Source: a virus
Direction: 5' to 3' (one strand)
UHGV virus genome: UHGV-0134350
Length of the DNA: 31,759 nt
Shown: positions 50 through 30,480 of the stretch, piece after piece
How positions within the stretch are numbered: the first letter of the stretch is position 1
How the letters are laid out: each line of letters begins with the position of its first letter
Translations under genes and position numbers: made by a program
The notes under the pieces: generated by a model
Told to the model about the DNA's origin: nothing
The model's database searches: none
The model's input: only the letters and a program-made list of their open reading frames with translations

Positions 50-1219
50 TCACTCCTCATTTTCTTCTGAGCTGTACTCCACATCGGAGAGTTTAACCTC
101 AAGCTCTAAGCCCGTCGTGAAACCGTTATTATTGAGGTTGTGGGTCACCTTGCTGATTAACCATGCCTGCTCGTCTATGACGCGCTTAAAGCCTGACACG
201 CGTACAGGCGTCTCAGGAAATAAATCCGCTCGCCCTAGCGCCAGTGTGATTGAAAACTCCGCAACGCCTCGCTGCAGTTTATCCCACTTAGCCTGAGCGG
301 CGCGCATCGCCTGTGCCTTTGAGGCATAGACCGTCGTCAGCGCCAGCACGTTATCGGCTTCACCGGCCATGTACTCACCCTCACGTGCTTCCTGTTCTTT
401 TTTGACCTTTGTCTTTTTGCTGACCGGCTTTGCTTTTGGGTGTTCCAGTGCGCGCAGGTGCTTCTCTTTTGGCTTGCGTTTCAGCGTTACTTTCTGCTTT
501 TGTGGCTTCGGGTCTTTGGTGTGCAACCATTTAGCAGTGACGCCGGTATAAGCCCCACGGTCGGCAATGGCAAACTGATGACGGTCACCATCACTGCGGG
601 TCAGCGTCATTTGCGGGACGGGTTTGCCGCTGGCCGTCATCGCACTACCGGCTTTCAGAAACAACAGTTTCCCTGCCTTCACCGATACCGTTGCCCCGTT
701 GCGGTCAGCCAGTCGACTCAAAAATACCGCGTCGGATTCCTGCGACTGGTCGATATGCGGTACCGGGATTTTTTTCAGCGATTCCGCAATGCTGGCCGTC
801 AGTTTGTTGCGCTTTGCGATGGTACTGACCAGTTCGCCGATGGTGGTGTCGTGCCATGACTCTTCACGCCTGGAATTTAGCGTGCCGCGAAAGTCCGCGC
901 TGCGCGCCCGGATGGTCAGGGTATCAGGAGCCCCCCGGTGCTCAATCTCATCGACCGTAAAATCCCCCTTATTCAGCAGCGCCGAACCCTGCCAGCCAAG
1001 CCACAACGTCAGCACTGCCCCGCGCAGGGGTAACTCGACTTTCCCATCGGTGTCATCGAGCTCAATGTCGAGCTGGTCAGCTTCAAAGCCCCTATTGTCC
1101 GTCATGGTGAGAGAAATCAGCCGGTCGCTGAAGTTACTGGTAATGTCCTGACTGTTCAGCGTCAGCATAAAAGCCGGTGCAAGGCTGGCACCGGCGTCAA
1201 TTGCCATCCCCGTTATCAT
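50..1219 (-). CDS. D: tail protein gpD (late control D)
   Basis: 389-aa ORF with recognisable P2 gpD-like sequence; its start overlaps the U stop in an ATGA arrangement; position after U-T as in P2. Confidence 0.9.
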   Translation of the reverse strand: MITGMAIDAGASLAPAFMLTLNSQDITSNFSDRLISLTMTDNRGFEADQLDIELDDTDGKVELPLRGAVLTLWLGWQGSALLNKGDFTVDEIEHRGAPDTLTIRARSADFRGTLNSRREESWHDTTIGELVSTIAKRNKLTASIAESLKKIPVPHIDQSQESDAVFLSRLADRNGATVSVKAGKLLFLKAGSAMTASGKPVPQMTLTRSDGDRHQFAIADRGAYTGVTAKWLHTKDPKPQKQKVTLKRKPKEKHLRALEHPKAKPVSKKTKVKKEQEAREGEYMAGEADNVLALTTVYASKAQAMRAAQAKWDKLQRGVAEFSITLALGRADLFPETPVRVSGFKRVIDEQAWLISKVTHNLNNNGFTTGLELEVKLSDVEYSSEENEE

Positions 1220-27184: not shown

Positions 27185-27694
27185 TCAAATCAGACCAAAC
27201 GATGCGCCAATACCGCTCATGGTATCGACCACGCTCGACATAGCTGGATTAGTCTGCAGACGTGCATGCAGAGCCAGAGCCGACAATGACAACATGCGAA
27301 TGCCGGAGTTAACGCTTTCAATCATGTTGTGCTTACGGGCAATGGTCAGACGTTCATCAGATACCGCGCCGCTCGCCAGTTCGCCGAGTTCACGCATTGC
27401 GCGCATGACATAAGACTGCAATTTGTCTTTAGCCAACTCATTAACCGGCACGCATGGTAGGCAGTGAATCTGCGCTAAAAAACCATCAATGAGGGTTGAG
27501 TCTTCGGTCAGGTCAGTCAGCAGCCACAATTCAGACGGCGTGAACTGGTGAGGCTGTTCCGGGTTGAGCTTGTTACGTAACGTTTGAACGTTCATACCTG
27601 CACGCTTGGCCAGCTTCGCCATATTGTGACGCTGTGCGAAAATGCGGCATGCTTCGTCATAGTGGGGATGTTTGGAAACCTGAAAATCAAACAT
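27185..27694 (-). CDS. cII: CII-like lysogeny establishment regulator (186 CII / CP76 family); P2 gpB is the alternative assignment
   Basis: 169 aa from ATG (MFDFQVSK...) with GAGGG RBS; HTH-like segment MAKLAKRAGMNVQTLRNKL; lies directly after the apl-like gene as in 186. Confidence 0.65.
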   Translation of the reverse strand: MFDFQVSKHPHYDEACRIFAQRHNMAKLAKRAGMNVQTLRNKLNPEQPHQFTPSELWLLTDLTEDSTLIDGFLAQIHCLPCVPVNELAKDKLQSYVMRAMRELGELASGAVSDERLTIARKHNMIESVNSGIRMLSLSALALHARLQTNPAMSSVVDTMSGIGASFGLI

Positions 27695-27726
27695 GGTTAA
27701 ATTCCCTCTAACTTGCATAATCAAAT

Positions 27727-28098
27727 TCAGTTAAGAGCGGTGCGCTGGTCGATGTAGCGACAATCAATCGCTTGTTGAGTCAGCTTATCGCGCCATGCTT
27801 TTACGTTTACGAGGGTTCGGCTTCGTTTAGCAGCTTCCTCTTTGTTGGAAAAGTCTTTGGTCGGAGCTTTGAGAAGGACTCCCTCATCGAGCCATTGCCA
27901 GACCAGACGCTCGCTAACACCGCGAGTAGCGGCGAAGTCTTTCACAGTCATCGTGTCTGACATAGCGGAGCGAATCATTGTCTGTAGAGCTGGCAGCATG
28001 GCGGTAACGATGGCATCAAACTGTGTTGGATCTAGCAGCACAGTTTGATTTTGTGAGTTTTGCGAGTCGTGCGTCGAGATTGATTTTGCATCTGACAT
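27727..28098 (-). CDS. Apl/Cox-like excisionase-regulator (HTH)
   Basis: First gene of the early operon, divergent from the repressor; HTH MTVKDFAATRGVSERLVWQWL; AGGAGA 9 nt upstream of the ATG at 28098, internal starts not excluded. Confidence 0.7.
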   Translation of the reverse strand: MSDAKSISTHDSQNSQNQTVLLDPTQFDAIVTAMLPALQTMIRSAMSDTMTVKDFAATRGVSERLVWQWLDEGVLLKAPTKDFSNKEEAAKRSRTLVNVKAWRDKLTQQAIDCRYIDQRTALN

Positions 28099-28219
28099 AT
28101 CGCATTATCTCCTGTTGTTTGAAATGTAGTGCAGTGGTGTGCATCTTGGTCGATGAATGCCACTATAGATCGTAAAAAGTTTTCTGTAAACACCCATAAA
28201 ATTATCTGTAGGGGTTTTT
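28099..28219. promoter_or_regulatory. genetic switch region between the apl-like and cI genes
   Basis: 121-bp intergenic region between divergent early and repressor genes; individual operators were not resolved by eye. Confidence 0.5.
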
Positions 28220-29080
28220 ATGAGTTCTGAGCTTGATGTTCAGTGGCGTGTTAGTGCAACGAACGGCGTATTGGAACGCTTAATGTCAGCCTATGGGGTC
28301 AAGATGCAAAAGGATTTGGCTGACCTGCTAGGTATCGCTAAACACAGCGTTAGCGGCTGGGTTCAGCGTGATGCAATACCTGGCAATGTCATAGTTAGGT
28401 GTTGTCTTGACACGGGAGCTGATATCAATTGGCTTGTAAATGGAGAACTTGCAAATGCAAATCACGAGCGAGCCAGTTGCAAGTTAAAAGGCAAAGAGCT
28501 TTATGACGAGATTATGACGAATGGTGGTAAAACCGTTTTGCGTAGGATTCTTGATGCGTATGGCTTTACCATGCAAAAGGAGCTCGGTGATTTGCTCGGC
28601 ATTTCCTCTGGCACAATTAGCACATGGGTAAGGCGAGATTTTTTCCCTGGTGATGTTGTTGTTACATGCGCTCTTGATACCGATACGTCACTGGAATGGT
28701 TAGCAACAGGCAAGGGGCAAATGCGAGCTAACAGGGAAGATGTCACATCTGGTTTTTCTATTAAAAAATCTCGTCTTGAATCTGGTGAGCTTAAGGATGC
28801 AGGAACGTGGCATCCTGACCCCTCAATGATTCCTTCTAACTCAGGGGAATTGATTTTTGTTGACGGTGTAGCTGCCTCTTGGCTTGTCGACTGTTCTGCT
28901 TCGAATATAAGTAATGGTCGCTGGTTAATTGATATCGACGGCGCTCTTGATGTTTTTGATGTAATTCGCTTGCCCGGTGGAAAAGTCAGGTTGTCAAATA
29001 AGTCTGCTGAGTTTGAATGCAACATTACAGACATTACTCCTGCCGGGGCTGTAGTTTTCACATTGGAAAAACACGTGTAA
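28220..29080 (+). CDS. cI: CI-type immunity repressor (186 CI-like) with tandem duplicated N-terminal DNA-binding domain
   Basis: 286-aa ORF; two internally similar segments (aa about 18-77 and 96-163) of the phage CI repressor HTH type, then a CI C-terminal-like domain. Confidence 0.8.
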   Translation: MSSELDVQWRVSATNGVLERLMSAYGVKMQKDLADLLGIAKHSVSGWVQRDAIPGNVIVRCCLDTGADINWLVNGELANANHERASCKLKGKELYDEIMTNGGKTVLRRILDAYGFTMQKELGDLLGISSGTISTWVRRDFFPGDVVVTCALDTDTSLEWLATGKGQMRANREDVTSGFSIKKSRLESGELKDAGTWHPDPSMIPSNSGELIFVDGVAASWLVDCSASNISNGRWLIDIDGALDVFDVIRLPGGKVRLSNKSAEFECNITDITPAGAVVFTLEKHV

Positions 29081-29088
29081 GGGACATT

Positions 29089-29418
29089 ATGAAATGTAAA
29101 CTCTTTTTAGCTCTGCTTCTTACCCTTTCTTTTGGAGCCTCAGCCGCTGAAAAAACACAGGATTTAGATGGCGCTAAGTTTGGTGAGGATTGGCCGTTAA
29201 CTTTTGAAAAAGCTACGGTGTCTTGTGTCAACGGTAAATATGCCTTTGTGTACGACAAAGCAACAGATGACCAAATGGTTTTGCGATTGATGGAGTAAAG
29301 TCTGGAAAGCTTGAGGGGAGCAATATTGATACTGTTTGGAAAGATAGCCCGGAGTATGCAGGCGTAAAAATTCCTTTGGATCCTGTAATGGATGCTGCAA
29401 CAGCACTTTGGGAATAAT
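29089..29418 (+). pseudogene. small secreted protein gene interrupted by a 1-nt frameshift (moron between cI and int)
   Basis: ATG with GGGA RBS; signal peptide MKCKLFLALLLTLSFGASA; the frame stops at 29298 but another frame continues NGFAIDGVKSGKLEGSNIDTVWKDSPEYAGVKIPLDPVMDAATALWE to 29418. Confidence 0.5.
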
Positions 29419-29439: not shown

Positions 29440-30480
29440 ATGACTGTAAGTAAGCAAAAAAATGGCAAATGGTTATGCGAGCTCTATCCAAATGGTCGAG
29501 AAGGGCGGCGTATACGTCGGCAATTCAATACCAAAGGTGAGGCCGAGGCATTCGAAGCATTTACGAAAAGTGAGAGTGAGGATAAGCCGTGGCTCGGCAA
29601 GAAAGAAGACCGCCGACGCTTAAGTGAGATTATCCAGCTTTGGCATAATTTACACGGACAGGCACTGGTCGCCAGTAAGTCGCGGTTAGCTAAACTTCAA
29701 ATCGTGTGTAATGGACTTGGTGACCCTATTGCATCCCGCCTTACTGCTAAAGATTGGGCTCATTACCGTGACCGCCGACTTCGGGGGGAGATAGATAATG
29801 GCTATCATAAAGACCCGGCAAAATGGATTGCTAAACCGATAACTGTCAATCGTGAGCAACAATATCTTGAGGCTGTATTTAATGAGCTCAAAAGGCTAGG
29901 GGAGTGGAGCTTACCAAATCCACTTGATGGAGTCCGTGTTTTCAAGGAAGCCGAGAAAGAAATGTCTTGGCTCACTTTGTCTCAAATTCCGAAATTGTTT
30001 CAGGCATGCGAGCAATACGGAAAAGAAGACCTCACCATGATTGTTAAGATTTGTCTTGCAACAGGTGCTAGATGGGGTGAGGCTGAGAGGTTGACACGTC
30101 CCCAGCTCTCGCCACATAAACTGACCTTCACCAAAACGAAAGGGAAAAAGAATCGAACCGTTCCGATCCCAAAATGGTTGTATGACGAATTATCTGAAAG
30201 GCAGGGAAAGATGTTTAAGCCTTGCTATCAGGAGTTTAAAAAGATGCTCAAACTAACGGATATCGAACTGACGGAAGGGCAAAAGACACACGTTCTGCGT
30301 CATACCTTCGGCGCTCATTTTATGATGAATGGCGGGAATATTCTTGTGCTGCAACGTATACTCGGTCATGCGAATATTCGTGAAACTATGAAGTATGCAC
30401 ATTTCTCCCCGGATCATCTTGAGGAGGCTGTAACATTTAATCCTTTAACATTATGTAATGGTTTTAAATGGAAAGATTAA
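29440..30480 (+). CDS. int: tyrosine integrase
   Basis: 346-aa ORF with catalytic-domain motifs HVLRHTF, LQRILGH and YAHF; downstream of cI as in P2/186. Confidence 0.9.
   Translation: MTVSKQKNGKWLCELYPNGREGRRIRRQFNTKGEAEAFEAFTKSESEDKPWLGKKEDRRRLSEIIQLWHNLHGQALVASKSRLAKLQIVCNGLGDPIASRLTAKDWAHYRDRRLRGEIDNGYHKDPAKWIAKPITVNREQQYLEAVFNELKRLGEWSLPNPLDGVRVFKEAEKEMSWLTLSQIPKLFQACEQYGKEDLTMIVKICLATGARWGEAERLTRPQLSPHKLTFTKTKGKKNRTVPIPKWLYDELSERQGKMFKPCYQEFKKMLKLTDIELTEGQKTHVLRHTFGAHFMMNGGNILVLQRILGHANIRETMKYAHFSPDHLEEAVTFNPLTLCNGFKWKD

Follow-up and report, generated by a model that had tools for sequence, protein, structure and literature searches.

Two helix-turn-helix domains in the CI repressor of a PSP3-type prophage and a possible division of labour between them

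Introduction

Why does an immunity repressor of the phage 186 family carry two helix-turn-helix (HTH) domains in one chain, and what does each of them read? The question is raised by the cI gene at 28220..29080 of UHGV virus genome UHGV-0134350, a 31,759-nucleotide stretch of DNA (hereafter, the window). The window is a P2/186-like E. coli prophage of PSP3 type (Eganvirus), and its cI product is a 186-family CI immunity repressor in which an extra HTH domain (N1) precedes the canonical unit of HTH domain (N2) plus C-terminal domain (CTD). Comparison of related loci leads us to favour, with a probability of roughly 0.6, a division of labour in which N1 would set immunity specificity at the lytic promoter pR, whereas N2 would read conserved flanking sites in the manner of the 186 distal sites FL and FR.

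The 186 switch is one of the few quantitatively understood genetic switches, and its repressor wheel, distal sites and dual recognition are textbook long-range regulation. According to Shearwin et al. 2002, as cited in PMC3675496, the one HTH domain of 186 CI reads two recognition sequences. The cI gene of the window is itself known and annotated already: RefSeq names its product “phage repressor protein CI”, PHROGs lists a transcriptional repressor, and the PSP3 record labels the orthologue “immunity repressor”. Literature searches yielded no description of the HTH doubling; it is not discussed in a 2024 Eganvirus paper and is annotated in none of the records of PSP3, SEN1, vB_EcoM-613R3, Midge and SW9, and the extra length of PsP3 CI was put down to a “longer C-terminal domain” (Nilsson et al. 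2011, PMC3448106). No earlier account thus appears to exist of the doubling, of how it recurs in the family, of the split in conservation between N1 and N2 or of a selected palindrome inside the gene. Taken alone, the basic observation is a modest annotation point, a known gene with an unremarked domain doubling.

CI carries two HTH domains and a 186-type CTD

The cI open reading frame lies on the plus strand, starts with ATG and encodes 286 residues. In a BLASTP comparison of residues 1-91 with residues 92-195, the stretch 14-83 pairs with 100-173, 37/74 positions (50%) being identical (E = 5e-25), and Pfam places PF07022 (Phage_CI_repr) twice in the chain, at ~15-80 and again at ~106-169 (whole-protein E 1.3e-52), with PF16452 (Phage_CI_C) behind them at residues 180-277 (E 1e-20). 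The AlphaFold2 monomer model, calculated from 83 homologues, has a mean predicted local distance difference test score (pLDDT) of 83.6 and contains two domains of five helices each and a CTD rich in beta structure; the linkers between them, at residues 79-86 (pLDDT <50) and 171-177, are modelled with low confidence. By hmmsearch limits and modelled helices, N1 spans residues 15-80 (28262..28459, plus strand), with its predicted recognition helix KHSVSGWVQR at about residues 41-50 (28340-28369). The N1-N2 linker, residues 76-103 (28445..28528), is partly disordered in the model and holds the intragenic palindrome described below. N2 occupies residues 104-169 (28529..28726), with the predicted recognition helix SGTISTWVRR at about residues 130-139 (28607-28636), and the CTD, a predicted oligomerisation domain of the 186 CI type, extends over 28757..29077.

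The unit of N2 and CTD matches the 186 CI crystal structure 2FJR (E 6e-22), N2 aligning with the N-terminal domain of that structure, and Foldseek superposes the modelled CTD on a subunit of the 186 CI CTD 14-mer (2FKD_A; TM score 0.89, root mean square deviation 1.6 Å), although such a likeness of fold is no proof of the oligomeric state. The Pfam scan of CI found no Peptidase_S24, and the CTDs of LexA and lambda CI are distant fold matches (E 1e-6 to 1e-3, TM ~0.3 on the query). 186 CI belongs to the same two Pfam families, aligns along its whole length with N2 plus CTD, lies in the same gene neighbourhood and is likewise abutted by the lytic promoter at the cI start. However, overall identity is ~30%, and 186 CI has, as the initial annotation had stated, one HTH domain in ~192 residues (192 aa), whereas the window CI, with two in 286 residues, departs from the 186-type pattern of one HTH per chain of ~190 residues.

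The reading from the sequence alone, in which the HTH domain occurs twice (residues 18-77 and 96-163) and is followed by a CI-type CTD, therefore holds for both elements, its residue ranges being right to within a few residues; both copies are intact HTH folds by Pfam and in the model. Nor is the doubling an assembly artefact. PSP3 CI (AY135486, AAN08403) also has 286 residues and is 97.9% identical to the window protein, the CIs of vB_EcoM-613R3 and SEN1 are 99.7% and 97.2% identical, and 130 of 5426 complete E. coli genomes contain one copy each of the 3.4-kb region, several of these copies being 100% identical.

The doubled architecture extends well beyond this group. In INPHARED, 152 records match the CI protein, 48 of which (about a third) align to >=80% of the query as a single unbroken match. 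Run exhaustively against 1.84 billion cluster representatives, phmmer yielded 432 matches, and the best 150 of these comprise 70 with the order HTH-CTD, 14 with HTH-HTH-CTD and 14 HTH-HTH fragments, so that among the complete 50%-cluster representatives of these top matches 70/84 have one HTH domain and 14/84 have two. Peptide patterns derived from N2, scanned against a genome collection, retrieved 80 loci, one per species, which together with six phage loci make up a set of 86; here 61 loci encode two HTH domains and 21 encode one. The comparisons between loci that follow draw on this set.

N1 and the pR DNA vary together between immunity types

Alignment of the switch regions of the window, PSP3, Midge, RCIP0057 and SW9 reveals a block, from 28060 to ~28156, that is 100% identical in all five, with flanks that are 50-86% identical. 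Divergence sets in at ~28157, within the -10 element of the predicted lytic promoter, and continues through the cI start and the whole of N1 to ~28480. Beyond this boundary N2 and the CTD are nearly identical as protein at only ~75-85% identity as DNA, which argues for purifying selection rather than recent exchange. Midge and SW9 have N2, the CTD and the invariant switch block in common with the window, yet their N1 domains (nonsynonymous divergence, pN, of N1 0.26-0.37 against Midge, SW9 and locus L009) and their pR operators differ, and both phages are presumably heteroimmune. By contrast, PSP3, SEN1 and 613R3 have essentially the same CI as the window (97-99.7%) and the same pR region.

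The predicted lytic promoter lies at 28162..28190 on the minus strand (-35 TTTACA 28190-28185, -10 TATAGT 28167-28162, 17-nt spacer; 10/12 in a consensus scan). It points toward the Apl-like gene and, with respect to cI, lies where pR is annotated in 186, and its -35 element, TGTAAA on the plus strand, is kept in nearly all related loci. Flanking this element are two direct repeats, AAAGTTTTCTGTA (28176-28188) and AAAATTATCTGTA (28198-28210), 22 bp apart, which together (28176..28210, plus strand) are the candidate N1 operators; of the three occurrences of TTNTCTGTA in the 31.8 kb of the window, two are at pR. Such 13-bp direct repeats with 22-bp spacing and no clear palindromes would also suit a different reading, the one advanced in the initial annotation, in which N1 and N2 of one chain lie side by side on long asymmetric or direct-repeat pR operators and the palindromes elsewhere have no relation to CI. 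The asymmetric Midge repeat ATCGA-N4-GAGT would fit it too, the ATCG or ATC that borders the first operator on its promoter-proximal side in many immunity types could be a constant half-site, and with a flexible linker of ~25 residues both domains might contact neighbouring major grooves.

Comparison across 60 loci points elsewhere. Each type of N1 recognition helix is accompanied by its own pR DNA, whereas the N2 helix remains ISSGTISTWVRR throughout; the pR element of the window recurs in loci with the same N1 helix and is different in others, where pR carries, by N1 type, ATCGCAAATGCGAT, ATCGTAAAAACGAT, two copies of ATCACAAATGTGCT, two copies of ATCGA-N4-GAGT or long dyads centred on the -35 element. 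These N1-type motifs occur at pR only, mostly as two copies 21-22 bp apart, a spacing equal to the two-turn phasing of the 186 pR operators (PMC3675496); the window has two repeats at pR and 186 three operators. The joint variation of N1 and 28157-28219 between heteroimmune relatives suggests that N1 is the immunity-specificity domain. Composite operators read by both domains are unlikely in comparison: perfect 14-bp palindromes at pR in several types (ATCGCAAATGCGAT, ATCGTAAAAACGAT, ATACACAAATGTAT) fit a symmetric pair of identical domains, single-HTH relatives with an N2-type helix use TTGCAAG-type half-sites, to which nothing alike is found at pR of two-HTH loci, and the frozen synonymous codons at the linker palindrome (see below) would be left unexplained. 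The comparative data favour two separate site classes over one operator occupied by both domains.

The Apl-like genes provide a further view of these exchanges. They fall into two diverged alleles, ~76% identical, of which one groups the window with Midge and the other PSP3 with SW9; the alleles thus sort differently from immunity type, indicating that the pR operators plus N1 move as a cassette of their own.

The invariant block (28060..28156) contains a pL-like promoter on the plus strand (-35 TTGATT 28080-28085, -10 CATTAT 28103-28108), proposed by analogy with the annotated 186 pL and scoring 8/12, below the scan threshold. The repeat GTGCA-N5-GTGCA (28129-28143) lies between this presumed pL and pR, in the position of the Apl sites of 186. 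The motifs that had been put forward as possible operators in the 121-bp region 28099-28219 are indeed present, namely ATTATCT at 28104 and 28201 and GTGCA...TGCAT at 28129-28144, but a role as CI operators is probably wrong for ATTATCT 28104 and the GTGCA element, and we rejected both as immunity operators. They lie within the block that is 100% identical in the heteroimmune PSP3, Midge and SW9, and motifs of such a block cannot specify immunity. The copy of ATTATCT at 28201 fares better, since it falls within the candidate operator AAAATTATCTGTA. By position, ATTATCT 28104 overlaps the ribosome-binding site of the Apl-like gene and the pL-like -10 element. The GTGCA repeat is found mostly in loci with a closer homologue (~36% identity or more) of the 123-residue Apl analogue and may be the operator of that protein.

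N2 is conserved and resembles the HTH of single-domain relatives

In sharp contrast to N1, N2 is the most conserved part of CI, with a pN of only 0.04-0.06 at saturated synonymous sites (pS 0.67-0.87). Invariant columns also cluster in the N2 HTH among 11 diverse 50%-cluster representatives, a set chosen without N2 patterns. Single-HTH CIs of 196 residues, encoded by prophages of Rahnella, Ewingella and Chimaeribacter (loci L063-L084), have an HTH domain near-identical to N2, with the same recognition helix SSGTISTWVRRDYFPGDVVV, together with a homologous CTD and N-terminus, and lack N1. In these relatives a palindrome, CTTGCAnnTGCAAG, lies in the lytic promoter itself, whereas that of the window lies in the linker. 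Of the 20 single-HTH loci, 18 carry the pattern CTTG[CAT][ATC]TTTGC[AG]AG (1 mismatch in one of them) 53-54 nt before the ATG; there it falls between the -35 and -10 elements of a TTGACA-type lytic promoter, as the central pR operator of 186 does.

Strong conservation of the N2 protein would be expected of a conserved protein interface as well, and HTH domains in the 186-type CI family can make protein contacts. N2 could accordingly be mainly structural, as a spacer, a dimerisation domain or a docking module, for example for a Tum-like antirepressor, with N1 alone binding DNA and the linker palindrome being the site of another factor or conserved for other reasons. We give this explanation little credence, as the most conserved stretch of N2 is its recognition helix, identical to the DNA-binding helix of single-HTH CIs, and as the DNA evidence of the next section also speaks against it.

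Several single-HTH loci within L063-L084 contain a second operator copy, CTTAATTTTGCAAG (1-2 mismatches), inside cI at +270 to +283. The offset is that of 186 FL (+269), in DNA coding for the linker between the N-terminal domain and the CTD, and an intragenic distal operator in linker DNA therefore seems to be a family trait.

A selected palindrome in the N1-N2 linker and further N2-type sites

When the two-HTH loci were scanned with the single-HTH palindrome pattern, allowing <=2 mismatches, the N2-type motif was found at three fixed places: within cI at +210 to +228, at -158 to -177, and 18 nt from the cII start. The first is represented in the window by the 14-bp palindrome CTTGCAAATGCAAA (28448..28461) in the N1-N2 linker, which matches the promoter operator of the single-HTH loci, is the sole 0-mismatch match to YTTGCAWWTGCAAR in the window and is a candidate N2 operator. 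The linker palindrome occurs in 38/56 loci, where the background rate of these loci predicts 1.2, and in ~52/60 by palindrome scan.

Across the 60 loci compared, the palindrome is kept in two reading frames, which read ELANAN in some loci and NSHLQ or NLNLQD in others. Where the site encodes [LF]-A-N-A, Ala is GCA in 56/62 cases at the site versus 130/677 elsewhere in the same genes (p 4e-30); Asn is AAT in 29/29 versus 186/327 (p 3e-7), and Leu is CTT in 8/8 versus 169/878 (p 2e-6), although these p-values overstate independence, the loci being phylogenetically related. Synonymous codons are thus frozen by selection at the DNA level on the palindrome, in a stretch that is modelled as disordered. 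Moreover, three loci with the N2 helix GTMSAW have TGTAAG half-sites instead of TGCAAG, and locus L036 has CTTAAAAATTTAAG. Both results speak against a mainly structural N2, for which neither DNA-level selection on the cognate single-HTH palindrome inside two-HTH cI genes nor a change of half-sites in loci with a changed N2 helix would be expected.

They also bear on a third alternative, in which the palindrome is a functionless relic of duplicated or fused promoter-operator DNA and N2 is redundant with N1. A neutral site would decay at synonymous positions, which are saturated elsewhere in cI, yet the palindrome codons are frozen and the motif is retained after a shift of reading frame; N2, moreover, is under strong purifying selection. 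We hold this alternative to be very improbable, even though the position of the palindrome, discussed below, fits a relic origin.

At the second place, -158 to -177 from the cI start, the motif is present in 26/60 loci, and the block of DNA there is conserved between the diverged Apl alleles; the window has TTTGATTTTGTGAG (28044..28057, plus strand, 2 mismatches) in the 5'-terminal part of the Apl-like gene and ahead of the pL-like -35 element. A weaker N2-type copy with 3 mismatches, ATTGATTTTGCATC, lies near the pL-like promoter (28079-28092, plus strand). The 11-mer TTGATTTTGCA, common to 28080 and the single-HTH operator of L063, is a variant of a degenerate motif that may be due to chance, and was kept as a weak N2-type site only. 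At the third place, between the Apl-like stop codon and the cII start, lies CTTGCATAATCAAA (27712..27725), with 2 mismatches in the window and 0 in PSP3 and SW9. Motifs at this junction always lie 18 nt from the cII start codon (16/37 loci), and 186 FR lies 15 nt from it.

The candidate distal sites of the window, 28448-28461 and 27712-27725, are ~265 bp and ~470 bp from pR, are well backed by the comparison of loci and differ in sequence type from the pR repeats. Their positions are like those of 186 FL, inside cI, and 186 FR, at the apl/cII junction, which lie ~300 bp either side of pR-pL.

Origin of the HTH doubling

Domain identities and a neighbor-joining tree group the N1 domains of the PSP3 clade together and its N2 domains together, which points to one old doubling event in this clade. 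N2 is up to 88% identical to the HTH domain of single-domain CIs. In the clade of Klebsiella phage 4LV2017 and P0137, on the other hand, N1 and N2 are alike (~60%), and both resemble the single-domain CIs of their own subfamily; further doubled groups are P0184/P0196/P0199 and P0234. All N1 domains were monophyletic in 0/100 bootstraps, and on the tree HTH doubling thus arose at least three times in the 186-type CI family. A clade of all PSP3-type N1 domains was itself tried and not retained, as its bootstrap was 3/100 only and P0128_N1 wanders.

The initial annotation spoke of a tandem duplication. This is plausible, yet unproven for the PSP3 clade: N1 does not group with N2 in the domain tree, and two heteroimmune cI 5' regions may just as well have been fused. 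From these trees, N1 may have arisen by duplication in situ from N2 or by fusion with another cI, with equal possibility.

The linker itself may preserve a trace of the event. The N-terminus of the single-HTH CIs, MRLDELEGGK, aligns with residues 95-104 of the window CI, YDEIMTNGGK, and the linker palindrome lies exactly 54 nt 5' of the codon aligned to the single-HTH start, which is the first-operator offset of the single-HTH phages. A TTGCAAG half-site follows 22 bp past the palindrome (28477..28483, plus strand); its right end, at -19, is at the second-operator offset of those phages, and the half-site may be what is left of a second ancestral operator. These offsets, which are also what a relic would predict, suggest that the doubling event carried promoter-operator DNA into the reading frame, where it became the N1-N2 linker. 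The idea is limited by the offsets, which vary in other loci, and by the rest of the linker, which has no clear DNA similarity. A relic origin and a present function of the linker palindrome are compatible, and we think that both hold.

The independent Klebsiella 4LV2017 duplication, with operator-like GTTCAC repeats 44 bp apart in its linker, would likewise agree with relic DNA. As operators carried along, however, these repeats are suggestive only: 4 matches stand against 1.5 expected, and 15/200 shuffles reach 4. In the same phage (L004, 1380-1810) the first 25 residues of CI resemble the N1-N2 linker in sequence, and both regions have elements reading (G/A)TTCAC or ATCAC, spaced ~20-26 bp, that are similar to TTCAC, the half-site of 186 FR. 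The cI start codon annotated at 1420 in L004 may be too far upstream; ATG 1474 aligns with an internal ATGGAG at 1798.

Proposed mechanism and its standing among known systems

We propose the following scheme. The CTD would oligomerise as in 186 CI, giving dimers and possibly a wheel of dimers. Pairs of N1 would occupy the two 13-bp repeats, 22 bp apart, around the pR -35 element (28176-28210) and so repress lytic transcription. N2 would keep the DNA specificity of the single-HTH repressors and bind 14-bp palindromes of the type YTTGCAWWTGCAAR, at 28448-28461 in the cI linker, at 27712-27725 in the apl/cII junction and, more weakly, at 28044-28057 and 28079-28092 near the lysogenic promoter. 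These sites would act like 186 FL and FR and the weak pL sites, looping serving to strengthen repression of pR and to tune pL and pE. Immunity could change when one ~320-bp cassette, made up of the pR operators and N1, replaces another, and the remainder of the switch would stay as it is.

The wider picture combines several steps: two jobs split over two HTH domains; N1 with ~60 bp of promoter DNA as a swappable cassette; N2 as the bearer of an ancestral, invariant specificity for looping sites, one of them inside its own linker; the linker as captured promoter-operator DNA; and an event that recurred at least three times. As a package this is offered tentatively and falls somewhat short of even odds.

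A number of observations weigh against the division of labour. The assignments of domains to DNA are all correlative, and oligomerisation, looping and the promoters are likewise inferred; the sequences themselves show the architecture, the homology, the mosaic boundaries, the joint variation of N1 and pR DNA, the constraint on N2 and the DNA-level selection on the linker palindrome. The 80-locus set was retrieved with N2 peptide patterns, so that N2 conservation there is inflated, and the unbiased set follows the same trend with n=11. The covariation of N2 helix and palindrome rests on 3-4 loci, and the palindrome count of the window is not significant by itself (5 matches at <=2 mismatches versus 2.7 expected), so the case for the palindrome depends on comparison across loci. 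At pR the window has direct repeats with no obvious palindromic symmetry, whereas several other immunity types have 14-bp palindromes there. ATTGTCTGTAG at 27977 (TTGTCTGTA at 27978) matches the pR repeat and could be a distal or third N1-type operator; we rejected this candidate as probably due to chance, for it is not retained in PSP3 despite the identical immunity, and the coding DNA around it goes with the Apl allele rather than the immunity type. The FR-like site has a -10-like CATAAT and a fixed distance to cII and could be a promoter (pE-like) or a translation element. Lastly, two single-HTH loci, L082 and L086, have an N2-like helix and other spacer elements, CTCAAAAAGTCGAG and CTTATTTATTTAAG. 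Helix identity therefore does not fully predict the site, and an N2-like helix not tied to one DNA sequence is also what a structural N2 would allow; residues outside the recognition helix may set specificity, or one HTH domain may read two site types as in 186. L082 is from Franconibacter and L086 from Citrobacter sp. OP27, and L082 keeps a canonical CTTGATTATGCAAG 368 nt upstream of the cI start.

The CIs of Klebsiella phage 4LV2017 (313 aa) and of the clades P0137, P0184/P0196/P0199 and P0234 have the same HTH-HTH-CTD architecture as the window CI, yet differ in their independent origin and in N1 and N2 domains that are alike (58-65%), resemble the single-HTH CIs of their own subfamily and are unlike PSP3 N1; with two recognition helices alike, a division of labour is not indicated in these clades. 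POU domains and engineered single-chain 434 repressors also join two HTH-type modules by a flexible tether, each module having its own DNA specificity. Those modules, which have no homology to CI, read adjacent half-sites of one composite site, whereas the evidence for the window CI favours sites hundreds of bp apart.

If the division of labour is true, binding at pR and at distal sites would reside on separate domains that can be mutated independently, a clean genetic handle, and new immunity types would arise by exchange of a ~320-bp cassette while the looping architecture stays fixed. A selected operator within linker coding sequence would be a case of overlapping codes and of the exaptation of regulatory DNA into protein. 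The doubled architecture is common, being present in at least 61 enterobacterial species, and is thereby relevant to prophage superinfection immunity in clinical Enterobacteriaceae.

Neighbouring genes and further features

The window has its late genes on the left and its immunity region on the right, where the genes follow in the order cII, apl-like, cI, DUF2511, int, as they do in PSP3 and 186. The cII gene (27185..27694, minus strand) encodes a 186-type CII activator (PF06892, E 3.8e-46; a 510-bp coding sequence in RefSeq), likely starting with the ATG at 27694 (MFDFQ...), and int (29440-30480, plus strand) encodes a P2-type integrase by open reading frame and Pfam match. The analogue of Apl/Cox, 123 residues long and divergent from cI (27727..28098, minus strand), belongs to phrog_3554 with a weak Cox-like match, has no Pfam family and is the orthologue of PSP3 gp30. 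It is unrelated in sequence to 186 Apl (PMC3448106), and the PsP3 protein has been called a singleton (Nilsson et al. 2011, PMC3448106). For its Apl analogue, the Midge record lists an HHpred match to a Mesorhizobium R7A DNA-binding protein.

Within the Apl-analogue gene, in its 5' portion, lies an inverted repeat at 28015-28049 with 14-nt arms, ATCAAACTGTGTTG and CAGCACAGTTTGAT, that are 93% complementary across a 7-nt gap; the right arm lies in the block conserved between the diverged alleles, and the left arm is not conserved in PSP3. Between cI and int, the DUF2511 gene (29089-29417) encodes a signal-peptide protein orthologous to PSP3 gp28 (112 aa); in the window it is frameshifted, its frame ending at 29298, and RefSeq lists it as a pseudogene in an identical E. 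coli prophage. Far from the switch, at 21-34 of the window and just past the 3' end of a homologue of tail gene D (open reading frame 50-1219, minus strand), lies ATTGCATTTGCAAG, an N2-type palindrome with 1 mismatch, which may be due to chance or be a further CI site.

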